Source of the DNA: a virus
Taxonomy: Duplodnaviria; Caudoviricetes
Length of the DNA: 64,000 bases
IMG/VR virus record: IMGVR_UViG_3300032030_002018
Reading direction: 5' to 3' (one strand)
Shown here: piece by piece, positions 6,608-45,156 of the stretch
How the letters are laid out: each line of letters starts with the position of its first letter
Position numbering within the stretch: the first letter of the stretch is position 1
Notes under the pieces: generated by a model
Told to the model about the DNA's origin: nothing
Database searches by the model: none
What the model saw: only the letters and a program-made list of their open reading frames with translations
Position numbers and translations under genes: made by a program

Positions 6608-6647
6608 TGATATGTAATTTATTTTTTTTTATTTAATCATCATCTTC

Positions 6648-6790
6648 ACAGTATGTTAAAACTTGAACAAACTTGTCTGTCCATTATTAACTTCTTGCTT
6701 CAACCTACCACTGCTTTTTAGTGCCTCATCACTGAGTCTGTCATCCACAGTTGGATAGTCCACAAGCATAAATTCTGTAGTACTGCTACC
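6648..6790 (-). ncRNA. omegaRNA/reRNA scaffold of the IS607 TnpB (copy A)
   Basis: Overlaps the tnpB 3' end; 5' hairpin GUAG-CAGUA-CUAC whose loop can pair with the 3'-terminal UACUG; homologous to 10230-10335 and 14506-14652. Confidence 0.75.
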
Positions 6791-6889
6791 TACTATTCTT
6801 AAACCTTCATCAAGTATGTTTAACGCTGCATTGTAGTCTCGCTCAATCACTTCACCACAAACAGGGCATAACCATTGTCTGTCACTCAA
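6656..6889 (-). pseudogene. tnpB: TnpB C-terminal remnant (Zn finger and RuvC-III)
   Basis: [21 protein letters not shown]; N-terminal part absent. Confidence 0.85.
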
Positions 6890-7018
6890 CTTCAGTTCTT
6901 TATTGCTCTTAACATAAATTTCCTATTTAATCATCTTCTGTACACCACATACCACCAGGACAACTTGTGTCATTAAACGGACAGTCGGTACATTTATCTT
7001 TATTTTCTTCTTTGTTGT

Positions 7019-7300
7019 TCATTTTCTTCTGTTAAATTCATCTATAATATTTTGTGACGGTTTGCCAACTGATGCCAAATACTTATAGTAAAGTTTTTTG
7101 CAAACAAATGGGTTTCCATTACAACCGTCTGTATCTTTATGCGACCAAGGAAGCATACATTCAGGATAGCCATTATCCCACCACTCACATTCGTTTCCAA
7201 ATTCAAAAAGCAATTTATTCGCCTTTCTATTAACAGATGTTCTTTGTTTATTTTTTCCCATCTTTCTTATTTTTTCTCCTTTCAGCACTTCTGCGTCCAT
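7019..7300 (-). CDS. Hypothetical Cys-containing protein inside the IS607 remnant
   Basis: 93-aa ORF between the tnpA and tnpB fragments; start uncertain. Confidence 0.5.
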   Translation of the reverse strand: MDAEVLKGEKIRKMGKNKQRTSVNRKANKLLFEFGNECEWWDNGYPECMLPWSHKDTDGCNGNPFVCKKLYYKYLASVGKPSQNIIDEFNRRK

Positions 7301-7625
7301 AATACTTCCCTGAGAATGAAGCCAACAGTGACATCATATCAGCAGCCAATTCCTCAGTATCAGATACGTCCATACCATTTATCACAATTACCTCACACCC
7401 ATAACTCTCAAACATCTTCTTGATGAACTTGAATTGGAATCGTGTAAGTCTATCCTTATGTTCTATTACCAACTTATTGACCTTTTGTTTTATTATCAAG
7501 TCAGTCAGTTTAACAAAGCCACTTCTATTGTCATTCAAACCACTACCAACATCTTTTATTATATGTGTGACAAGCATTCCTTTCTTGGCGCAATACTCAG
7601 ATAGTCTCTGTGATTGTCTATCCAA
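7248..7625 (-). pseudogene. tnpA: IS607-family serine recombinase TnpA, N-terminally disrupted
   Basis: DVGSGLN...IEHKDRLTRF...SFSGKYYGRRS motifs; catalytic YARVS region missing. Confidence 0.8.
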
Positions 7626-8622: not shown

Positions 8623-9510
8623 TTATTTTTCGTTTTTATCTTCCTGAATCAATTCAAATGGTTCTTCCTTTGTTTCTTCAACTCTTTTCTGCGCAATATC
8701 ACAGTATCGTCTGTCAATATCAATTCCAATATAATGTCTGCCAGTCCTTTTTGCAACAGCACAGGTTGTTCCAACTCCATTGAATATATCCATCACAGTA
8801 TCTCCACGAAAGCTGAATAGTCTAAGGATTCTATCTGCAATTGCTTCTGGAAACATTGCAGGATGTCCCCATTCTTTCATATTCCTTTCACCAGGAATAT
8901 TCCATATATTGCTCTTTACCCATTCAGAGAACTCTAATTTCTGCATATCGTCAGAGTTGTATGGCTGTTTAAAATGCTTTATATCACCTTTTGAATATAT
9001 CTCAATAAATTCAACCATAGATTTCATATATGGACTTGAAGAACTCAAATAACTACCCCAACAGGAATAATGTACATTGCGATTATTCTTATTCCATATA
9101 ATCTCATTTCGCCATATCATTTTATTCTCAATCATCAATGATGTTATCATATGATGTGTTGGAATAAAATCACTCATCAATGGCATTGTGTTTATTGCGA
9201 TTCTACCACCATATTTCGTTACACGTATTACCTCTTTTAATATTGCGAATAATTGATTGAAATATTCCTCATTGGTGGATGTATCGTCATATTCACCATA
9301 TTCCTTGCCAAAATTATATGGTGGGGAAGTAAAGGTCAAATCAATGCAATTGTCAGGCAATGTTTTTAAAAACTCCAAACTATCTGCACATATAATAGCA
9401 TCATTTATTGGAGAATCATTGTTGACCTTTGAAAAGGTATTGCCATTGGCATAATAATGCAATACCCTTTTGTTCTTTCTCTTATTTATTATTTTCTTTG
9501 TTTCAGACAT
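8623..9510 (-). CDS. DNA methyltransferase, N4C/N6A, beta class
   Basis: TSPPY, HPAMFP and DIFNGVG motifs; ATG overlaps the terminal CRISPR repeat. Confidence 0.9.
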   Translation of the reverse strand: MSETKKIINKRKNKRVLHYYANGNTFSKVNNDSPINDAIICADSLEFLKTLPDNCIDLTFTSPPYNFGKEYGEYDDTSTNEEYFNQLFAILKEVIRVTKYGGRIAINTMPLMSDFIPTHHMITSLMIENKMIWRNEIIWNKNNRNVHYSCWGSYLSSSSPYMKSMVEFIEIYSKGDIKHFKQPYNSDDMQKLEFSEWVKSNIWNIPGERNMKEWGHPAMFPEAIADRILRLFSFRGDTVMDIFNGVGTTCAVAKRTGRHYIGIDIDRRYCDIAQKRVEETKEEPFELIQEDKNEK

Positions 9511-10134
9511 CTTTATATACCTTTATTTTTAAGGTCTTCTACAACATATAATAATATTTTTTTATTTTACCTAAGTTGTATATACCTTTATTTTTAAGGT
9601 CTTCTACAACATACTCCTACCTTTCTTTTCTGATTCTATGTTGTATATACCTTTATTTTTAAGGTCTTCTACAACATTATTGCAAAAGTCTGCTACGATT
9701 CATAGTTGTATATACCTTTATTTTTAAGGTCTTCTACAACATTTTCTAACTATCGAACCATAAGGCATCTGTTGTATATACCTTTATTTTTAAGGTCTTC
9801 TACAACACATTCGCTAACAAATCCTTTGACTTGGCAGTTGTATATACCTTTATTTTTAAGGTCTTCTACAACAGGGGGGGGATGTGTTGATGGTATGTGG
9901 TGTTGTATATACCTTTATTTTTAAGGTCTTCTACAACTTGGTGCTATGCTTTCAAGGATAAGTTTAAGTTGTATATACCTTTATTTTTAAGGTCTTCTAC
10001 AACTCATTTGGAGACATCCTTTTAGAACCTTCGTTGTATATACCTTTATTTTTAAGGTCTTCTACAACCACCAAGACATTATATAAATGGTGCAAAGAGT
10101 TGTATATACCTTTATTTTTAAGGTCTTCTACAAC
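9510..10134 (-). CRISPR. CRISPR array: 10 repeats of 36 bp (GTTGTAGAAGACCTTAAAAATAAAGGTATATACAAC), 9 spacers of 29-30 bp
   Basis: Identical repeats start (+ coordinates) at 9575, 9640, 9705, 9771, 9837, 9902, 9968, 10033 and 10099; degenerate repeat at 9510-9545 taken as the trailer, implying minus-strand transcription. Confidence 0.97.
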
Positions 10135-10180
10135 CTATGACGCATAACTCTTTATTTGTCAGTTGTTTATGACCATTTTT

Positions 10181-10340
10181 GTGATGTAAAAGACCATTAT
10201 TTTAAGGTCGTGGCATTCATTTTGCCACAGTTTTTCTGTTTCATTCTACCACTACTTTTTAGCGAATTGTTTCCAATTGGGTCATCCATAGTTGGGTAGT
10301 CCGCAGACTTAACATCCCCGATACACCTGGGTAGGGTTTT
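10181..10340 (-). ncRNA. Putative tracrRNA derived from a TnpB omegaRNA (copy C)
   Basis: 10230-10335 aligns with omegaRNA copies A and B; hairpin GUGGCA...UGCCAC; anti-repeat GACCUU-AAAA-UAAUGGUCUUUUACAUC at 10183-10209. Confidence 0.75.
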
Positions 10341-10359
10341 TAATTGTTTTCCTTCAATG

Positions 10360-11604
10360 TTATTTTGTTTCTGTCAGAATTCTATATCCTTCGTTCCTGA
10401 TATTTATCGCTGCATTTATATCCCTATCGTGTTCTATTCCGCATTGTGGGCATTTCCACATTCTTATTTTTAAGTTCTTTAATTCCTTGTTTTGATATCC
10501 ACAATTTGAGCATATCTGAGAACTTGGATAAAATCTGTCTATAACAGATAAGTTCTTTCCGTACCAATCACACTTATATGTAAGTTGTCGTCTCATTTCT
10601 CCCATATTGGCGTTTGTTATTGATTTTGCTATATGGTGATTTTTGACCATTCCCTTGACATTCAAATCCTCAATGCAAATAGTGTTGATGTTATCATTAT
10701 TCTTCGCCACATATGAAGTGATTTGGTGTGTATTGTAATTTCTTTTACCTGCTATTCTATTTTGTAATTTTGCAATCTTGTCTTTAAGTTTAATGTAATT
10801 TTTAGAAGGAACTTTAACCTCAACATCCTTGTTATACTTGTGTGAAAACACTGTCTCACCGGTTTTTATCCATTTTTTCTTGGATAGTTTTCTTTCAAGT
10901 TTTTTAAGTCTTTTTTCAAGTTTGGAATCCTTTTCATTCGTCGGAAATTTTGTGCCGTCAGACGTAATGGCATTTGAGTCTGTCTTAACACCCATATCAA
11001 TTCCAATAGATTTTTCTATTGATGGAGTTTCCTTTTCTTTTGCCTTAAAATCGTCATCGCATAGAATTGATATTTCATAGTAATCAAATGATTTCTTTGA
11101 AATAGTAAATTGGGTGATTCTACCCTGTATTTTTTTATGCAGTATAATTTTCACCCAATGAGGATGTCTTGGATTTTGTGGGTTAACAATTCTTACAAGA
11201 GATTTTTTGAAATTGAAAATCTTTTTGTTATCAGTTTCTTGTATTTGTATTGCAAATGAATTTCCGTATTTTTTACTTTTAAACCTAGGTTCATCCGCAA
11301 GTTTTTTAAACCATCTATCAAAAGCAGAATCAAGGTTTGACGCTGTATATATATAAGATATAGCTGGTGCTACCTTTAAAAATTCTGTATCTTGATTTCT
11401 TTTCAATACAGGAAGGTCTCTTGACACATCATATTGTGCGCTTAAGTGTTTTTTAGCTGTATCATTGTCTTTGTTTTCTTGATAATGTTTTTTTATTTTC
11501 TCTAAACAGTAATTCCACCACCAAACATTTGACTTAAAACATTTGTCAAAATATTCTTTTTGTTCATCGTTAGGATATATCCTGTATTTATATGCTCTTT
11601 TCAT
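10360..11604 (-). CDS. CRISPR-associated TnpB/Cas12f-like RNA-guided nuclease (414 aa)
   Basis: AYKYRIYP N-terminus; RuvC-I GIDMG, RuvC-II IEDL, Zn finger CSNC/CPQC, RuvC-III DRDINAA; adjacent array; no adjacent transposase. Confidence 0.9.
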   Translation of the reverse strand: MKRAYKYRIYPNDEQKEYFDKCFKSNVWWWNYCLEKIKKHYQENKDNDTAKKHLSAQYDVSRDLPVLKRNQDTEFLKVAPAISYIYTASNLDSAFDRWFKKLADEPRFKSKKYGNSFAIQIQETDNKKIFNFKKSLVRIVNPQNPRHPHWVKIILHKKIQGRITQFTISKKSFDYYEISILCDDDFKAKEKETPSIEKSIGIDMGVKTDSNAITSDGTKFPTNEKDSKLEKRLKKLERKLSKKKWIKTGETVFSHKYNKDVEVKVPSKNYIKLKDKIAKLQNRIAGKRNYNTHQITSYVAKNNDNINTICIEDLNVKGMVKNHHIAKSITNANMGEMRRQLTYKCDWYGKNLSVIDRFYPSSQICSNCGYQNKELKNLKIRMWKCPQCGIEHDRDINAAINIRNEGYRILTETK

Positions 11605-12050
11605 TTTCTGTTAAAATGAGGGTGTCTCATAAAACGCTTGAATTGCTTCCTTGATTCATAATATTTTGCGACTTTGAACTCCTTGTCATATACATATCCA
11701 CAGTATATTCCACCGTTATCATACCATAATATTACTCGGCGTTCATCCTCTTTTACATTGAACTCAAAATGTCTTCCAAAACAATAGCTGTTATATAGCA
11801 CAATAGCCATAGAACCATCAGAAGTCTTCTTGATAATCATTTTGTCCTTATGAGGAACTGGTGCCATATAATCACCATTCCCTAATGATATGAACTCATC
11901 ATTATCAATGTCCTTGTCAAAATGAATCATAATACGCTCAATGGGTAATGAATCAACTACCTCATACTTTGAAAAATCAAATGGTTTCATTTGAGCGAAT
12001 ACAAACGAAGATATTGAAAATACAACTAAACTTAAAATGAACTTTTTCAT
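11601..12050 (-). CDS. Hypothetical exported protein
   Basis: Signal peptide MKKFILSLVVFSISSFVFA; stop overlaps the nuclease ATG (ATGA). Confidence 0.7.
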   Translation of the reverse strand: MKKFILSLVVFSISSFVFAQMKPFDFSKYEVVDSLPIERIMIHFDKDIDNDEFISLGNGDYMAPVPHKDKMIIKKTSDGSMAIVLYNSYCFGRHFEFNVKEDERRVILWYDNGGIYCGYVYDKEFKVAKYYESRKQFKRFMRHPHFNRK

Positions 12051-12072
12051 AAAAACTATATATTAAAAAGAT

Positions 12073-12202
12073 AACCGCGTGACGGAATCGAACCGTCATC
12101 TTTCGATTACAAGTCGAATGTTAAAACAGGAAAATTGCTGTTAGTCGCTTTAAAATATCATCAAACGGCATTTACAATATTCTACCATTGAACTAACGCG
12201 GT
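12073..12202 (-). tRNA. tRNA-Thr(UGU)-like gene with ~59-nt insertion between D arm and anticodon arm
   Basis: Perfect acceptor ACCGCGT/ACGCGGT, D arm, anticodon arm TTCGA-CTTGTAA-TCGAA, T arm; insert 12119-12177 contains ACAGCAAT. Confidence 0.75.
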
Positions 12203-12219
12203 TATATATTGTTAAACAA

Positions 12220-12444
12220 TCAATTACATTCAAAAATCTCAATGTTCATCCTATACTTACCTTCCTTGTTTGGACATTGTGATTCATCCCTTTCCTCAAT
12301 GAAAGTTTTCAGACTATGTATATTTCTTTCAATGAATGATTCTAAACTATCTTCTTCACAAGAGAATGTCTGTGAACCATATAATAGTTTGTCTTTTAAA
12401 TTGCGCTTTATAAGTTCAGCACCCAATTCCTCAAAAATACCCAT
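12220..12444 (-). CDS. Hypothetical protein
   Basis: 74-aa ORF within the tRNA region, same strand. Confidence 0.55.
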   Translation of the reverse strand: MGIFEELGAELIKRNLKDKLLYGSQTFSCEEDSLESFIERNIHSLKTFIEERDESQCPNKEGKYRMNIEIFECN

Positions 12445-12470
12445 ATATAAAGTTAATTAAAAAGTAATTG

Positions 12471-12559
12471 TTGCGGGAGAAGGATTCGAACCTTACGTCC
12501 GGTTTTTGTCCCGGTCCAGTTTATGAGGCTGGCGAGTTTGACCACTACTCTATCCCGCG
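12471..12559 (-). tRNA. Atypical tRNA(CAU) with C1:A72 mismatch and long variable arm
   Basis: CGCGGGA/TCCCGCA acceptor, CTCATAA loop, CCGG...CCGG variable stem. Confidence 0.75.
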
Positions 12560-14424: not shown

Positions 14425-14430
14425 ATCAAG

Positions 14431-14503
14431 AGCGGAAGACGAGATTTGAACTCGCAACTTTCAGCTTGGAAGGCTGACGCTCTGCCAATTGAGTTACTTC
14501 CGC
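14431..14503 (-). tRNA. tRNA-Gly(UCC)
   Basis: GCGGAAG/CTTCCGC-T; TCAGC-CTTCCAA-GCTGA. Confidence 0.93.
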
Positions 14504-14505
14504 AT

Positions 14506-14652
14506 ACTGTACGCTAAATTCTGAACAAACTTGTCTGTTCATTATTAACTTCTTGTTTCATCCTACCACTACTTTTTAGTACCTCATAGCTGAGTGTGTC
14601 ATCCATAGGAGGGCAGTCCGCAAGCGTAAATTCGGGTGTACAGCACCCTACG
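14506..14652 (-). ncRNA. Orphan TnpB omegaRNA scaffold (copy B)
   Basis: Aligns along its length with 6648-6790; hairpin GGGUG-CUGUA-CACCC whose loop pairs with the 3' UACAG; no tnpB ORF. Confidence 0.75.
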
Positions 14653-14687
14653 TTTAATAGATAAATACTCATTTTTTATTTACAATG

Positions 14688-16852: not shown

Positions 16853-18052
16853 CTACCCACAAACTAAAGATTTGTGGGCTTCTGACTTCATTGCTGACTG
16901 CCATTGAAATGGTCTTACATCTGCTCCATCAGTGTAATCGACAGTTCCTGCCGATATATTTCTTAATCCTTCTGCAAGGATATTCATTGCTGCATTAACA
17001 TCTCTGTCAAGAACTTCTCCACAATTTGGACAAGTCCATTCCCTATCTTTCAACGATAAGTCTTCTTTAACCCAACTACAACAATGGCAAGTCTTTGAAG
17101 ATGGGTAGTATCTACCTATCTTCACTACTTTCTTATTGTTCATAACTGCCTTGTAAGTAAGCATTGAAAGGAATGCTCCCCAACTTGCATCAGATATACT
17201 CTGAGCAAGTCTATGGTTTCTTTGCATACCCTTTACATTCAAGTCCTCACAACAAATTACATCATAATTCCTGATTAAGTCGGTGCTAATCTTATGTAAT
17301 TTGTCAAACCTACAGTTATGAATTTTCTCTTGTATTCTCGCAACCTTAATTCTTTGTCTGTTCCAAGAATTACTACCTTTCTGCTTTCTTGACAAATGTT
17401 TCTGCGATTTTGCAAGCTCTTTTGAATAACGCTTGATGAATTTGTTACTTGAATATCTCTTACCATCACTTGTGACTACCAAGTCTTTTAACCCCAAGTC
17501 TATACCAACCTTTGCATTGGTTTTCTGCAACGGTTCATATATAACTTGAGTAAGTATGGAAACATAATATTTTCCGCTCGGTGTAACAGAGATTGTCATA
17601 TTTCTGACATCGCCACCTTTGAATGGTCTATACTCCACTATCTTAATCCCATCTTTGAACTTTGGAATATATATCCTACCATTCTCAACAGAACAATGCT
17701 GTGGTATACGAAAACTTCCGCCATTTTTCTTTGCCTTGAATCTTGGAAACCTTGCATTACCACTAAAAAAATTAGTATATGCCGTTTCAAGATTTCTCAG
17801 TGCGAATTGAAGTGTCTGTGAATTGATTTCCTTTAACCACAAGTATTCTTCTTGTCTTTTTAGTTTGGTAAGTGCGCTTGCTTGTACATAGTAATTGTCA
17901 CTTTTACCATTATCAGTGTATTGCTGTTTTCTTTCAGCAAGAAAATGATTATAGACAAAACGTACAGACCCAAAATACCTTGCAAGTATTTGCTCTTGCT
18001 CCTTATTTGGGCACATTCTGTACTTATATGTCTTTAAAATCACTTTCATCAT
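16853..18052 (-). CDS. tnpB: IS605-family TnpB RNA-guided endonuclease
   Basis: GIDLG, CEDL, CHCC/CPNC, DRDVNAA. Confidence 0.95.
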   Translation of the reverse strand: MMKVILKTYKYRMCPNKEQEQILARYFGSVRFVYNHFLAERKQQYTDNGKSDNYYVQASALTKLKRQEEYLWLKEINSQTLQFALRNLETAYTNFFSGNARFPRFKAKKNGGSFRIPQHCSVENGRIYIPKFKDGIKIVEYRPFKGGDVRNMTISVTPSGKYYVSILTQVIYEPLQKTNAKVGIDLGLKDLVVTSDGKRYSSNKFIKRYSKELAKSQKHLSRKQKGSNSWNRQRIKVARIQEKIHNCRFDKLHKISTDLIRNYDVICCEDLNVKGMQRNHRLAQSISDASWGAFLSMLTYKAVMNNKKVVKIGRYYPSSKTCHCCSWVKEDLSLKDREWTCPNCGEVLDRDVNAAMNILAEGLRNISAGTVDYTDGADVRPFQWQSAMKSEAHKSLVCG

Positions 18053-19054: not shown

Positions 19055-19453
19055 TCAGCCTTGATTCTCAATATACTTTCTAATAGTATCAGGATTCGCT
19101 TCACCAATAGAACATACAAAATATCCATCAGACCAAAAAGTATGTTCCTTCCAAAAATGTTTTCTTAGTATTGGTTGGAACTCTTTCCAAAGTCTGTTTG
19201 TACTTACTTGTTTCAATACTCTGACAATTGAAGTAACTGTAATATTTGGCGGATAACTAATAAGAAGATGTATATGGTCTTTGTCCGTTTCCATTATCTC
19301 AATATCAAAGTCACATCTACTTTCTACTTCCTTAAATACTAAAAGAACACATTCTCTAATTTCAGAAACAAGTAGTTGTTTCCTGTACTTACAGACAAAT
19401 ATTAAGTGACATTTCAAGTAAAACTTGTGTCTATTATTAGAAAAATAACTCAT
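19055..19453 (-). CDS. tnpA: IS200-type Y1 HUH transposase
   Basis: HLIFVCKYR, DHIHLL (HUH), FWSDGYF, YIENQ. Confidence 0.95.
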   Translation of the reverse strand: MSYFSNNRHKFYLKCHLIFVCKYRKQLLVSEIRECVLLVFKEVESRCDFDIEIMETDKDHIHLLISYPPNITVTSIVRVLKQVSTNRLWKEFQPILRKHFWKEHTFWSDGYFVCSIGEANPDTIRKYIENQG

Positions 19454-19803: not shown

Positions 19804-21000
19804 ATGAAAGTGATTTTAAAGACATATAAGTACAGAATGTACCCAAATAAGGAGCAAGAGCAAATGCTTGCAAAGTATTTTGGGTCCGTACGTTTTGTCT
19901 ATAATCATTTTCTTGCCGAAAGAAAACAACAATACACTGAGAATGGAAAAAGTGATAACTATTATGCACAAGCAAGCACACTTACCAAACTAAAAAAACA
20001 AGAAGAATACTTGTGGCTAAAGGAAATCAATTCGCAAACACTTCAATTCGCACTTAGAAATCTTGAAACTGCATATACTAATTTCTTTAGGGGTAATGCA
20101 AGATTTCCAAGATTCAAGGCAAAGAAAAATGGTGGGAGTTTCCATATACCACAACATTGTTCTGTGGAGAATAGTAGAATTTACATACCAAAGTTCAAAG
20201 ATGGAATTAAAATAGTAGAACACAGACCATTCAAAGGCGGAGATGTCAGAAATATGACAATCTCTGTCACACCAAGCGGAAAATATTATGTTTCCATACT
20301 TACACAAGTTACATACGAGCCTTTACAGAAAACCAATGCAAAGGTTGGTATAGACTTGGGGTTGAAAGACTTGGTAATCACAAGTGATGGTAAAAAGTAT
20401 TCAAGCAATAAGTTCATTAAGCGTTATTCAAAAGAACTTGCAAAAGCACAGAAACACTTGTCAAGAAAGCAGAAAGGTAGCAATTCTTGGAACAGACAAA
20501 GAATTAAGGTTGCAAGAATACAAGAGAAAATTCACAATTGTAGATTTGATAAGTTACATAAAATTAGTACTGACTTAATCAGGAACTATGATGTAATTTG
20601 TTGTGAGGACTTGAATGTTAAAGGTATGCAAAGAAACCATAGACTTGCTCAGTCAATATTAGATGCAAGTTGGGGAGCATTCCTTTCAATGCTTACTTAC
20701 AAGGCAGTTATGAATGATAAACAAGTAGTGAAGATAGGTAGATACTACCCATCTTCAAAAACTTGTCATCATTGTGGTTGGGTTAAAGAAGACTTATCGT
20801 TGAAAGATAGGGAATGGACTTGTCCAAATTGTGGAGAAGTTCTTGACAGAGATGTTAATGCAGCAATGAATATCCTTGCAGAAGGATTAAGAAATATATC
20901 GGCAGGAACTGTCGATTACACTGATGGAGCAGATGTAAGACCCTTTCAAGGGCAATCAGCAAAGAAGTCAGAAGCCCACAAATCTTTAGTTTGTGGGTAG
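19804..21000 (+). CDS. tnpB: IS605-family TnpB
   Basis: Intact RuvC D/E/D and Zn finger; near-identical to 16853-18052. Confidence 0.95.
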   Translation: MKVILKTYKYRMYPNKEQEQMLAKYFGSVRFVYNHFLAERKQQYTENGKSDNYYAQASTLTKLKKQEEYLWLKEINSQTLQFALRNLETAYTNFFRGNARFPRFKAKKNGGSFHIPQHCSVENSRIYIPKFKDGIKIVEHRPFKGGDVRNMTISVTPSGKYYVSILTQVTYEPLQKTNAKVGIDLGLKDLVITSDGKKYSSNKFIKRYSKELAKAQKHLSRKQKGSNSWNRQRIKVARIQEKIHNCRFDKLHKISTDLIRNYDVICCEDLNVKGMQRNHRLAQSILDASWGAFLSMLTYKAVMNDKQVVKIGRYYPSSKTCHHCGWVKEDLSLKDREWTCPNCGEVLDRDVNAAMNILAEGLRNISAGTVDYTDGADVRPFQGQSAKKSEAHKSLVCG

Positions 21001-22586: not shown

Positions 22587-23414
22587 TTATTCATTAAATA
22601 CGTCGTAGAAAGCCTTGTAATTACCTTCTTGTTTTCCGTCAAGTATAGCAAACACTATATACTTGAACTTATCCTTATATTCGTCTGTTTCAAGTATTTC
22701 CTTGAATAGTTTGGCAATCTCCTTTGGCGGGTTATGAAATGCTCCACACCCCAATGCACTTAATACCAATGAATCGTTACCATTGATAAGTGCAACATTC
22801 AATATTGTTTTGATTTTGTTACGTGTGATGTTTTTTATTGCTTCCTCAATATGTCCATTCTCATCTACATATGGGTCACGATATCCGGCAACACTGACCA
22901 CATCAACAAGAAATGGTTCTTCAAGTGGTGCATAATAGTTGTTTTCAGTATCCCTGAACACCGTAACGTTCTTACAATAGACTGCACCGTTGTTCATATT
23001 AAGTGGATATTGATTTCTATCGTCGTATTCCATACCCATTTTTTTTGCCATTCTGTCACAGTATCTGTACATTTGTGTAAATAGATTGGTACGTCTGAAA
23101 AGATTCTCTTCTTGTGCGCCTGAACCACTGAATACACCTCCTCCAGGGTTTGATGCAGAAGCCATATTCAGTACAGCTGGATGATATCCTTGCTCAACTA
23201 ATTTATAAGCAGCTGCAAGGCTATCGCTATCAAGAACCTCAATCTTTGTGTCGTATTTTTCAAGATTGTCAAAGTCGATTGAAATTCTCTTTTTATAAAA
23301 ATTAGAAGAAATAATGTTGTTGTCAATCGTTATTGTCTTATCTCCAATGGTATAACCGTTTTTAACCATATCTATCGTATCAAGATAGATTGATGCACGT
23401 TTTTCTTTTTTCAT
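22587..23414 (-). CDS. Bacterial-type poly(ADP-ribose) glycohydrolase (TIGR02452-like macrodomain)
   Basis: VLNMAS..PGGG..GSGAQEE and LSALGCGAF motifs. Confidence 0.88.
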   Translation of the reverse strand: MKKEKRASIYLDTIDMVKNGYTIGDKTITIDNNIISSNFYKKRISIDFDNLEKYDTKIEVLDSDSLAAAYKLVEQGYHPAVLNMASASNPGGGVFSGSGAQEENLFRRTNLFTQMYRYCDRMAKKMGMEYDDRNQYPLNMNNGAVYCKNVTVFRDTENNYYAPLEEPFLVDVVSVAGYRDPYVDENGHIEEAIKNITRNKIKTILNVALINGNDSLVLSALGCGAFHNPPKEIAKLFKEILETDEYKDKFKYIVFAILDGKQEGNYKAFYDVFNE

Positions 23415-41516: not shown

Positions 41517-42500
41517 CTAACTTATAGATAATATATCACTTGCATAATCGCTCCAACTCGTTGCAGACTTATAAGTCTCAACACTTTCTGACGGAACATA
41601 AAACTTTCTGCCAGAAGCATTATTATTAAATACTACATTACCTAATGATGGAGGTGTCGTGGCATAAATTGTTACGATTGTAAGACTAGTGCAATAAGTG
41701 AATGCAGAAGATGCAATACTTGTAACACTGTTTCCAATTGTTACACTTGTAAGACTACTACAACCACCGAATGCCCAACTTCCAATACTTGTAACGCTAT
41801 CAGGTATGTTTATACTTGTAAGACCTTTACAATTACGGAATGACTCCGTTCCAATAGTTGTAACACCATTTCCAATTGTTACACTTGTAAGGCCACTACA
41901 ATTATAGAATGTTTGGCTACCAATACTTGTAACACCAGTTGGTATTGTTACGCTTGTAAGACTAGCACAATAAGTGAATGCATAATCTCCGATACTTGTA
42001 ACACCAGTTCCAATTGTTACACTTGTAAGGCCACTACAATCTTGGAATGCACTTGTACCAATACTTGTAACACTATCAGGTATATTTATACTTGTAAGGC
42101 CACTACAACTTGAGAATGCACTTGTACCAATACTTGTAACACTATTTGGAATTTCGACTTTAGTTACTGTACTTGCAGAATAAAAAGCATATGTACCTAC
42201 AGTTGTAACATCATCTGCAAACGTTATTGTTCCAACACCATCCTCAAAGTCGTGCGAAGATATTGTTGTATTGAATGCATTAGTGTGCAATCCACCGGTT
42301 TTCGTCGATGTGGTTTCTGTTAGTTTAGCTGGGGCATAGTACATTATAACATTTGTTGGAACAACAGGCTCATCACCCTTTTTATTGAAATGTACTTCGT
42401 TTTCTGTTTCGCAGAGGCTCACGTTAGGTAGCACAGCTGTATCACCTGTTATATAGGACTCATAGTCCGTGTGGTTCAAGAATTTCTTTAAGTATATCAT
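41517..42500 (-). CDS. BspA-type leucine-rich repeat protein
   Basis: 23-aa repeats LTSVTIPxSVTSIGxxAFxxC. Confidence 0.92.
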   Translation of the reverse strand: MIYLKKFLNHTDYESYITGDTAVLPNVSLCETENEVHFNKKGDEPVVPTNVIMYYAPAKLTETTSTKTGGLHTNAFNTTISSHDFEDGVGTITFADDVTTVGTYAFYSASTVTKVEIPNSVTSIGTSAFSSCSGLTSINIPDSVTSIGTSAFQDCSGLTSVTIGTGVTSIGDYAFTYCASLTSVTIPTGVTSIGSQTFYNCSGLTSVTIGNGVTTIGTESFRNCKGLTSINIPDSVTSIGSWAFGGCSSLTSVTIGNSVTSIASSAFTYCTSLTIVTIYATTPPSLGNVVFNNNASGRKFYVPSESVETYKSATSWSDYASDILSIS

Positions 42501-43962: not shown

Positions 43963-45156
43963 TTATGATATTGGCAAAATATAATTTGCGTATGAACTCC
44001 AATATTGTGCTGATTTATATGTTTCAACACTTCCTGAAGGCACATAAAACTTTCTACCAGATGCGTTGTCTTTAAACACATAGGTATCTTCTAATGTTGG
44101 CGGAGTCGTAGAGTAAATTGTCGCATTTAATAGATTTTCACAATAATCAAATGCTCTAGTTCCAATACTTGTAACTCCACTTCCGATTGTTACACTTATA
44201 AGACTACTACATCCATAGAATACATAAGCACCAATAAGTGCAACACTATCAGGTATGTTTATTGTTGTAAGACTATATCCAGAATAAAATGCACTTTCTC
44301 CAATACTTGTAACACTATTAGGTATTGTTATGCTTGTGAGACTTGAACAATCTTGGAATGCACTTTTTCCAATACTTGTAACACTATTAGGTATTGTTAT
44401 GCTTGTGAGTCTTGAACAATTTTGGAATACCTGATTTCCAATACTTGTAATACCGCTTCCAATATTAACGTTTGTAAGGCCTCTACAATAACCGAATGCA
44501 GAATTACCAATACTTGTAACACTATCTGGTATATTTATACTTGTAAGACCACTACAATTATAGAATGCACTTGTACCAATACTTGTAATACCGCTTCCTA
44601 ATGTTACACTTGTCAAACCACTACAATTACCGAATGTAGAATTACCAATACTTGTAACACTATTTGGTATATTTATACTTGTAAGACTTTTACAACCATT
44701 GAATGCACTACTTTCAATACTAGTAACACCACTTCCTAATGTTACACTTGTCAAACCACTACAATCTTGGAATGCACTTTCTCCAATACTTGTAACACTA
44801 TTTGGCATTTCGACTTTAGTTACAGTATTTGCAGAAAAAAAAGCATAGTTGCCAACAGTTGTAACATCATCAGCAAACGTTATTGTTCCAACACCATCCT
44901 CAAAGTCGTGTGAAGATATTGTTGTATTGAATGCATTAGTGTGCAACCCACTAGTTTTCTGCGATGTGGTTTCGTCTAATTTTGACGGTGCATAATATAT
45001 TATAACATTTGTTGGTACGACAGGTTCATCACCCTTTTTATTGAAATGTACTTCGTTTTCTGTTTCGCAGAGGCTCACGTTAGGTAGCACAGCTGTATCA
45101 CCTGTTATATAGGATTCATAATCCTGATGATTTAAGAATTTCTTTAAGTATTTCAT
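43963..45156 (-). CDS. BspA-type leucine-rich repeat protein
   Basis: Near-identical N-terminus to 41517-42500; about three more LRR units. Confidence 0.92.
   Translation of the reverse strand: MKYLKKFLNHQDYESYITGDTAVLPNVSLCETENEVHFNKKGDEPVVPTNVIIYYAPSKLDETTSQKTSGLHTNAFNTTISSHDFEDGVGTITFADDVTTVGNYAFFSANTVTKVEMPNSVTSIGESAFQDCSGLTSVTLGSGVTSIESSAFNGCKSLTSINIPNSVTSIGNSTFGNCSGLTSVTLGSGITSIGTSAFYNCSGLTSINIPDSVTSIGNSAFGYCRGLTNVNIGSGITSIGNQVFQNCSRLTSITIPNSVTSIGKSAFQDCSSLTSITIPNSVTSIGESAFYSGYSLTTINIPDSVALIGAYVFYGCSSLISVTIGSGVTSIGTRAFDYCENLLNATIYSTTPPTLEDTYVFKDNASGRKFYVPSGSVETYKSAQYWSSYANYILPIS

Follow-up and report, generated by a model that had tools for sequence, protein, structure and literature searches.

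A TnpB-sized nuclease gene, a scaffold RNA and a CRISPR array in a giant phage: a probable rival-directed module of the transposon-CRISPR intermediate kind

A 64,000-nucleotide stretch of Caudoviricetes DNA (IMG/VR record IMGVR_UViG_3300032030_002018; hereafter the window, by which we mean the whole stretch) carries on its minus strand, in this order, a gene for a 414-aa TnpB-type nuclease, a structured RNA and a CRISPR array. From the comparative evidence set out below, we consider it likely (probability about 0.8) that these parts form a working, TnpB-sized type V effector module of the transposon-CRISPR intermediate (TranC) kind, which the phage would use against rival phages. The carrier is a giant phage of the gut or rumen, and the window is phage DNA, with 15 tRNA genes in 8 kb and genes for a tail protein, a tyrosyl-tRNA synthetase, a CCA-adding enzyme and a helicase, and a protein identical to the array-linked TnpB is encoded on a contig of 334,726 bp.

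The open reading frame (ORF) at 10360-11604 encodes the nuclease, in which Pfam recognized HTH_OrfB_IS605, OrfB_IS605 and Cas12f1-like_TNB domains and which scored 268 bits against the NCBIfam model guided_TnpB (cut-off 100). The RuvC residues D203 (in GIDMG), E312 (IEDL) and D395 (DRDINAA) were invariant in an alignment of 35 relatives, as were the zinc-finger cysteines C365, C368, C385 and C388 (CxxC...CxxC). The start codon of the gene overlaps the stop codon of an upstream phage ORF as ATGA, which leaves no space for a transposon left end; the locus has no adjacent TnpA gene and no transposon ends, and it holds a single copy of the gene. No Pfam match to Cas1, Cas2 or Cas4 and no adjacent transposase was found among the ORFs scanned at about 460-24000, a scan that took in all but a few of the ORFs of at least 120 aa and a minority of the shorter ones. 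The nearest transposase-type genes, a serine-recombinase fragment (7248-7625) and a Y1 TnpA (19055-19453), belong to other elements. Downstream of the nuclease gene, 225 non-coding nucleotides separate the stop codon from the first of ten 36-nt repeats, which read GTTGTAGAAGACCTTAAAAATAAAGGTATATACAAC on the minus strand and alternate with nine spacers of 29-30 nt from 10134 down to 9510. The gene-distal repeat is degenerate, its 3' end bearing three mismatches, and the ATG of a methylase gene takes its A from the final base of this repeat; this decay fits a leader-proximal-to-distal polarity in the direction of the TnpB gene. An earlier, sequence-only reading of this DNA had described a 414-aa TnpB-like protein with three RuvC acidic residues and a zinc finger, about 225 bp from a ten-repeat array on the same strand, very divergent from the two IS605 TnpBs of the window, with neither transposase nor cas1/cas2/cas4 beside it and coupled in translation to an ordinary phage gene. 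The domain searches, the alignment of relatives and the coordinates bear out this anatomy, including the divergence from the IS605 proteins (32-33% identity), the absence of adaptation and transposase genes among the ORFs scanned and, for the coupling, the overlap itself.

The association of gene and array is conserved. Relatives drawn from a search of 5.8 billion proteins formed a group at 40-61% identity that was nearly all metagenomic, with several members on contigs of 260-390 kb. IMG/VR, metagenomes, species genomes and assemblies supplied 265 loci of TnpB relatives, and in each the 700 nt downstream of the gene were scanned for an array. Such an array was present at 11 of the 14 testable loci with at least 45% identity and at 2 of 219 testable loci with lower identity, one of which, L146, falls inside the clade and leaves a single case outside it; a linkage so frequent within the clade and nearly absent outside it is not due to chance. 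Altogether, 14 distinct proteins, down to 35% identity, are accompanied by the scaffold and a same-strand downstream array (carriers in Table 1), and these arrays hold 3-10 repeats of 36 nt with spacers of about 30 nt. A maximum-likelihood tree placed all carriers in one clade (support of 100 in the Shimodaira-Hasegawa-like approximate likelihood ratio test, SH-aLRT), whereas no downstream array was seen in any of the 59 TnpBs outside it on the tree whose loci were fetched. Whether homologues keep adjacent arrays, a check proposed with the sequence-only reading, is thus answered by a single clade of carriers, with its member P0022 as the exception. A sister group of 385-aa proteins at 40% identity also has scaffold and array. 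The repeats of the 14 carriers have diverged in step with their scaffolds, and the flanking genes vary between phages (baseplate genes, NAD synthase, methylases, a SprT-like gene). Among 185,579 prokaryote species, each represented by one genome, we found no member above 40% identity, and the family appears to be phage-only as far as the searched viral, metagenome and species collections reach.

Comparison of these loci indicates that a conserved structured RNA occupies the 225-nt gap. A CCTACC anchor just past the stop codon precedes the first repeat by 185-207 nt in 13 aligned loci and by 234 nt in L146. RNAalifold predicted 29 base pairs from the 13 loci, 19 of them with compensatory change. 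When a structure of 33 pairs was specified, 89% of the alignment cells were paired, compared with 75% in shuffled alignments and 39-49% when the partners were slid, and 21 pairs changed on both sides; none of 500 shuffles reached these values. On the 3' side of stem-loop 1 lie a multi-branch core and two hairpins, a variable one and the last one (10192-10209); the latter is similar to the repeat, with agreement at 23 of 30 aligned positions. Rfam returned no known family matching the scaffold at 9000-12500, and the covariance model built for it found no such scaffold beside 92 outgroup TnpBs.

The scaffold and the repeats show two candidate points of contact. The repeats end in AUACAAC, of which AUACA is complementary to the loop GUGUA of stem-loop 1, and the four central pairs of this contact are kept in 13 of 13 loci. 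In L019 both partners have changed, with a loop GUGCA and a repeat end AUGCAAC that together give a C-G pair, while its sister L021 retains U-A; at a fifth pair, six loci have U-A, L276 has C-G and L273 has G-U. From this covariation we infer that the 3' end of the repeat took over the role of the pseudoknot strand of an omegaRNA. Near the other end of the repeat, nucleotides 3-13 can pair with a candidate anti-repeat in the scaffold (Table 1), and in L183, where the candidate differs in sequence (GCAUUUACAAU), it can still form 11 bp with the start of its own repeat. Across the 13 loci, the energies of scaffold-repeat duplexes averaged -11.6 kcal/mol for cognate and -9.3 kcal/mol for non-cognate combinations (permutation p 0.0035, kinship ignored). 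Several duplexes rely on G-U pairs, which speaks for an RNA-level contact on the minus strand.

The spacers gave one identifiable target. Over its entire length, spacer 7 matches a protospacer inside the gene for a terminase large subunit (phrog_9, E 1e-149) on a 4-kb viral contig, L279, in which the terminase gene adjoins portal and HNH endonuclease genes; the chance expectation for the 22-mer seed of this match was about 0.01. The 5' flank on the protospacer strand reads ...GCATTG, which suggests, from one protospacer, a protospacer-adjacent motif (PAM) ending in TTG, and the CRISPR RNA (crRNA) of spacer 7 would be oriented antisense to the terminase mRNA. Use against competing elements, as the sequence-only reading had envisaged, is supported by this match of 29 out of 29 positions to a gene of another phage. 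The 22-mers of spacers 2, 3, 5 and 6 had no match in IMG/VR, the exact window repeat had none there either, and the arrays of L184 and L179 had none among INPHARED phages. Within the 64-kb window no self-targeting was found at up to seven mismatches, barring a low-complexity near-match. The 14 arrays yielded 61 spacers of usable length (25-35 nt). A comparison of these with the window and with about 1.7 Mb of fetched loci gave self-matches within arrays only, and none of the 61 was common to different loci. Indeed, L001 and L179, whose proteins are 97.3% identical, have zero spacers in common. Near-identical effectors without common spacers indicate that the arrays turn over.

Together, these data suggest the following model. 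The nuclease gene, a scaffold RNA of about 170 nt and the array would be transcribed from the minus strand and the RNA processed, with the former omegaRNA now acting as a scaffold in the manner of a tracrRNA. In the cell, the 3' part of the scaffold, GGUCUUUUACA, would pair with the 5' half of each repeat, and the repeat end AUACA would replace the omegaRNA's own 3' end in the pseudoknot with the loop GUGUA. The spacer lying 3' of each repeat would serve as the guide, and the RuvC nuclease would cut matching DNA beside a short 5' motif. The targets would be competing phages. Because no adaptation genes lie nearby, new spacers are presumably taken up by the machinery of the host. As regards transcription, the number of sites in a sigma-70 promoter scan was not above that in shuffled sequences.

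Several observations weigh against this model. The clade member P0022 (L181/L182) has no scaffold or array within 2.5 kb. The position of the anti-repeat is not one aligned column across loci, and its support is statistical, with kinship ignored. Overlapping the anti-repeat is a cis strand, UACAUC (10183-10188), which pairs with the loop of stem-loop 1 better than the repeat end does, and by way of this retained pseudoknot strand the RNA may still work in the one-piece omegaRNA mode. The predicted splitting of the guide RNA looks incomplete, since this cis strand persists together with the repeat-like last hairpin and a partial repeat in the leader; the leaders of L178, L179 and L146 contain comparable partial repeats. 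Targets in IMG/VR were found for one of the six window spacers searched, so that the candidate PAM rests on one site, and against INPHARED phages the window array gave chance-level matches only. Finally, the repeats resemble those of Cas13b arrays, and another effector could read the array too.

This last resemblance was traced in Bacteroidales. The pattern GTTG-N20-GGTA-N3-ACAAC, searched in 121 sampled genomes of the order, identified true arrays, repeating every 66 nt, in at least six (G018, G057, G065, G076, G099 and G116); in G049 it matched a run of two repeats. In the two genomes checked, a Cas13b gene (NF038190, 794 and 859 bits) immediately precedes the host array and shares its reading direction. 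Repeats of the phage family reach an identity of up to 28 of 36 positions with the Bacteroidales Cas13b host repeats, and at the 23 positions outside the search pattern the summed best identity was 182, compared with 122 +/- 7 for shuffled repeats, a value equalled in 0 of 2000 shuffles. These comparisons suggest that the family repeats are members of the type VI-B repeat class, descend from it or have converged on it. The window repeat itself had no match, at up to three mismatches, in 401 Bacteroidales genomes, and the sole ORF above 800 aa in the 64-kb window encodes a 1699-aa tail protein. In the searchable literature we found no published link of TnpB or TranC with Cas13b-class repeats. 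We tentatively raise the possibility that the array was captured from a type VI-B system of Bacteroidales hosts, the scaffold loop and the anti-repeat having been re-tuned to dock the foreign repeat. If it was captured, the host-like repeats could keep the host's route of spacer uptake available to the phage array, and the array might arm the phage TnpB, against DNA, and the host Cas13b, against RNA, together. That the nuclease was independently domesticated, as the sequence-only reading put it, is plausible; since the repeats are of the Cas13b class, however, the array may have been captured instead of having arisen out of the omegaRNA.

A different account of the same repeats would make the array a type VI-B mini-array that loads the Cas13b of the host or uses the host's uptake route, with TnpB sharing it or merely lying beside it. 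The 36-nt repeats, the 30-nt spacers and the reading direction from effector to GTTG...CAAC all agree with this, as do the repeat identity and its excess over shuffles at pattern-free positions, the place of host arrays directly after Cas13b genes and the antisense orientation of spacer 7; there is also the precedent of Cas12r, a phage type V system whose array mimics host repeats of type I-E. However, both repeat ends co-vary with the scaffold of the adjacent TnpB, and scaffold and array accompany the TnpB gene in 14 lineages with differing genomic contexts. The window, moreover, contains no ORF of Cas13b size, the repeat is absent from the Bacteroidales genomes searched, and the strand of one protospacer amounts to a coin toss. 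We consider such a mini-array unlikely, and weak as an exclusive explanation, although it may act as a further layer, by dual loading or a shared route of adaptation.

Two further accounts leave the repeat class aside. A mobile TnpB of the IS200/IS605 or IS607 type, using an omegaRNA with one fixed guide, could by accident lie beside an unrelated orphan array; the protein does look canonical, the scaffold retains the cis strand able to close the pseudoknot, and decayed elements with the same scaffold class occur in the same phage. As for a single guide derived from the flank, the window has nine different spacers, and a cis tail able to give one fixed guide persists. Yet the linkage is kept throughout the clade and is almost absent elsewhere, the locus has neither TnpA nor left end and its start codon overlaps a phage gene, and the repeats co-vary with the scaffold, which makes a bystander array improbable in the extreme. 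The nuclease could also be RNA-guided and serve ends other than conflict between phages, cutting or silencing host or self DNA for regulation, homing or genome maintenance. Eight of the nine window spacers have no known target, relatives of TnpB have been recruited as repressors (TldR, Cas12m), and DNA methylase genes lie beside several arrays. Against such a role, the catalytic triad is intact and invariant, the one target identified is a gene essential to another phage, the 64-kb window contains no self-match, and spacers turn over rapidly between near-identical effectors; we think it very unlikely. An RNA-guided module directed at rival phages is the explanation we favor.

The protein itself is closest to transposon-encoded TnpB. 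Its best solved relative by sequence is ISDra2 TnpB (E 1e-49, residues 3-406), while LaTranC matched at E 2e-33 over the C-terminal third only (residues 263-403) and the Cas12f entries of the PDB at E of about 4e-6 at the C-terminus only. An AlphaFold2 model with a mean predicted local distance difference test score (pLDDT) of 86.5 gave ISDra2 TnpB as the closest fold (8h1j, template modeling (TM) score 0.74/0.84), followed by ISFba1 TnpB; LaTranC came fourth in the Foldseek ranking, with Cas12f behind. The insertion of about 22 aa between RuvC-I and RuvC-II that the sequence-only reading had pointed out is real by comparison with outgroup TnpBs (residues 244-265), and in the AlphaFold2 model two helices enclose it as a beta-hairpin. 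The core clade has it, and the array-bearing sister group and every outgroup lack it; given that the sister group has arrays without it, the insertion arose after the association with the array.

Several assignments to known families were tried and rejected. The protein scored 33 bits against the Cas12f2 model NF049972 (cut-off 450) and 70 bits against the C2c8 model NF038192 (cut-off 350), and at 414 aa it falls outside the 500-700 aa of the Cas12p 'hacker' proteins. Membership of the LaTranC clade (TranC clade 3, with LaTranC and OsTranC3) was also rejected, as ISDra2 TnpB is closer by both sequence and fold. The sequence-only reading had considered that the protein might fall inside a characterised Cas12 subtype; it lies below the curated thresholds of Cas12f2 and C2c8.

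The kind of system to which the locus appears to belong has been described. A catalogue of 2023 lists branches of CRISPR-associated TnpB that lack adaptation genes as V-U6 to V-U45 (PMC10691335), and TranC systems were presented as transposon-CRISPR intermediates by Jin et al. (Cell 2025); according to two later sources, the omegaRNA of TranC is split into a tracr-like scaffold and a crRNA (bioRxiv 10.64898/2026.03.27.714800; PMC13565253). Structures of LaTranC are available (PDB 9jfo/9jfp/9jfq). For TranC clade 9 the same preprint reports a mean of 414 aa, a likeness to ISDra2 TnpB and no domain expansions; the active member CauTranC9 comes from a Caudoviricetes genome, has a determined PAM, and carries five 38-bp repeats with phage-matching spacers (bioRxiv 10.64898/2026.03.27.714800). 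The window locus shares with TranC, as these accounts describe it, a TnpB-sized effector, a downstream array, the lack of cas1/cas2/cas4, a predicted split of the omegaRNA and a remnant of the one-piece RNA. The traits reported for clade 9, with its mean of 414 aa, phage origin, likeness to ISDra2 TnpB, lack of expansions, about five repeats and phage-matching spacers, fit the window locus, apart from the length of the repeats (36 rather than 38 bp). The sequence-only reading's TnpB-to-Cas12 intermediate is thus supported by the conserved array linkage, the intact nuclease residues and the transposase-free phage operon, although its novelty does not stand, this kind having been published as TranC and V-U6 to V-U45. 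The family is of a known kind, and the locus may be a member of the described clade 9. What is new relative to the published picture, as far as we checked, is the nucleotide-level covariation of the two RNA contacts and the Cas13b-class repeats.

Comparison with other systems delimits the module further. Like ISDra2 TnpB (8h1j, 8exa, 8bf8) and ISFba1 TnpB (8iaz), it has a nuclease of that size and domain order, with RuvC and zinc finger, a scaffold RNA 3' of the gene and a guide 3' of the scaffold. Unlike them, it lacks transposase and ends, is present as a single copy and has a ten-repeat array in place of one flank-derived guide; its protein has the 22-aa beta-hairpin and its scaffold does not overlap the ORF. 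With Cas12f of type V-F (Cas14) it has in common a miniature effector, a tracrRNA plus crRNA arrangement (predicted for the window) and an array without adaptation genes, whereas its protein stays below the family thresholds and lacks the expanded REC or WED domains. The repeats of Cas12f end in ...CAAC, like those of the window. The LaTranC protein, as noted, is a poorer match than ISDra2 TnpB.

The Bacteroidales type VI-B systems resemble the locus in their 36-nt repeats and 30-nt spacers, in the layout GTTG...hairpin...GGTA...ACAAC and in an array that follows the effector in the same direction; they differ in that the window has no Cas13b, that the neighbor of its array is a DNA nuclease and that its guide is expected 3' rather than 5' of the repeat. 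A parallel also exists in the Cas12r-CRISPR of Thermus Lalka phages (Trofimova et al.), with a 564-aa effector, no tracrRNA and 29-bp repeats that resemble the type I-E repeats of the host, and whose authors propose use of the host adaptation module (bioRxiv 10.64898/2026.04.20.719267). Both cases combine a phage effector derived from TnpB with a short array, no adaptation genes and host-like repeats (type I-E there, type VI-B in the window), and in both a role in conflict between mobile elements is proposed and the diversity of spacers suggests uptake by host functions. Cas12r differs in its TnpB branch, its thermophile hosts, its effector length, its independence of tracrRNA and the length of its repeats.

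Further members of the same RNA class occur in the window. The scaffold covariance model found two more copies, both on the minus strand (73 bits for the one at 14512-14657, 70 bits for that at 6640-6799). The second of these follows the C-terminal remnant of a TnpB, and together with the serine-recombinase fragment the region 6640-7625 looks like a decayed IS607-like element. In this copy the loop CAGUA is complementary to the RNA's own 3' end UACUG, the last five bases before the guide; in the stand-alone copy at 14512-14657 the loop CUGUA is likewise complementary to its own 3' end UACAG before the guide. As the array-linked TnpB is the sole intact TnpB in the window with this class of scaffold, it could serve the stand-alone RNA in trans. 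The two IS605-type TnpBs belong to a different clade, the scaffold model had no match beside them, and they are ordinary IS200/IS605-type copies.

Some observations on the family and on the window stand apart from these questions. P0022 has 57% identity and intact catalytic residues, lies on a 379-kb contig and is followed by a 133-aa ORF (L181/L182 3703-4130). On the short Logan contigs L016 (2707-2968) and L268 (2872-3170), proteins identical to those of array-bearing loci have arrays of one or two repeats, with first and terminal repeats fused in L016 and the last spacer alone retained in L268; either assembly collapse or true deletion by repeat recombination would explain these reduced arrays. 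In L273 (3935-4060) two successive spacers are identical, a duplicated repeat-spacer unit, and a tRNA-like sequence comes directly after the array. L010 (48-1131), on a 66-kb viral contig, encodes another TnpB, unrelated in appearance, with 40% identity over the C-terminal 260 residues, and about 155 nt downstream of it are four direct repeats of about 45 nt with a period of about 75 nt and a different scaffold; it may be a second independent case. Directly past the array, on either strand, at least four family loci have a methyltransferase gene (N6_N4_Mtase or EcoRI_methylase): the window (8623-9510), L183 (4169-4882), L179 (4413-5288) and L266 (4216-4956). This could be coincidence in methylase-rich phages or a link to self-protection. 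The window also encodes a protein with a microbial-type PARG domain (22587-23414, minus strand), and L183 has PARG and NADAR genes beside its TnpB (1-1688); genes for processing ADP-ribose seem to turn up repeatedly in these phages. The ORFs 41517-42500 and 43963-45156 contain long tandem repeats of 69 and 138 nt (41667-42147 and 44150-44866) and probably encode structural or fibre proteins with internal repeats. A tRNA match from Rfam just upstream of the tRNA cluster (12081-12127, minus strand, 31.7 bits, model positions 10-63 only) was not called by ARAGORN.

Table 1. Positions of the module, its parts and other elements in the window, with the loci that carry the module.
Feature	Position	Strand	Details
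TnpB-type nuclease, 414 aa	10360..11604	-	RuvC triad and zinc finger intact; beta-hairpin insertion at residues 244-265
Structured helper RNA (omegaRNA-derived, tracrRNA-like; predicted)	10170..10340	-	Starts ~20 nt past the stop codon; covariance model R1, 157 bits
Stem-loop 1 of scaffold	10317-10331	-	Loop GUGUA at 10322-10326
Candidate anti-repeat GGUCUUUUACA	10185..10195	-	11 bp (one G-U) with repeat nt 3-13, UGUAGAAGACC
Leader	10135..10169	-	With base 10170 holds a partial repeat 3' end, AUAAACAAC (10162-10170), then 27 nt
CRISPR array	9510..10134	-	Ten repeats, nine spacers; terminal repeat 9510-9545 degenerate
Spacer 7	9676..9704	-	29/29 match to L279 2058-2086, terminase large-subunit gene
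N6/N4 DNA methyltransferase gene	8623..9510	-	ATG begins in the last base of the terminal repeat; a neighbor, membership in the system only possible
Upstream phage ORF, 149 aa	11601..12050	-	Signal-peptide-like N-terminus; no Pfam match; stop overlaps TnpB start
omegaRNA copy	6640-6799	-	After a ~40-residue C-terminal TnpB remnant (6791-6907, -); 450 nt from the serine-recombinase fragment
Serine-recombinase (Resolvase) fragment	7248-7625	-	Pfam; N-terminus missing
Stand-alone omegaRNA copy	14512-14657	-	No nuclease gene; ends a few bases before tRNA-Gly (14430-14503)
IS605-type TnpB genes	16853-18052; 19804-21000	-; +	94.5% identical to each other; 32-33% to the array-linked TnpB
Y1 (IS200-like) TnpA	19055-19453	-	Flanked by the two IS605-type TnpBs
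Module carriers	Window, L001, L018, L019, L021, L098, L178, L179, L183, L146, L266, L269, L273, L276

Taken as a module of the TranC kind, the locus would offer a clean natural case of the passage from transposon guide RNAs to CRISPR. The comparative data pinpoint key nucleotides, in the scaffold loop and the repeat end and in the anti-repeat and the 5' half of the repeat, and so provide a testable design for splitting an omegaRNA. At 414 aa the effector is at the small end of known CRISPR-associated nucleases, which is relevant to delivery in genome editing. The likeness of its repeats to the Cas13b repeats of the hosts suggests a source of spacers for arrays that have no adaptation genes, and the family would add further evidence that large phages deploy miniature CRISPR systems on rival phages.

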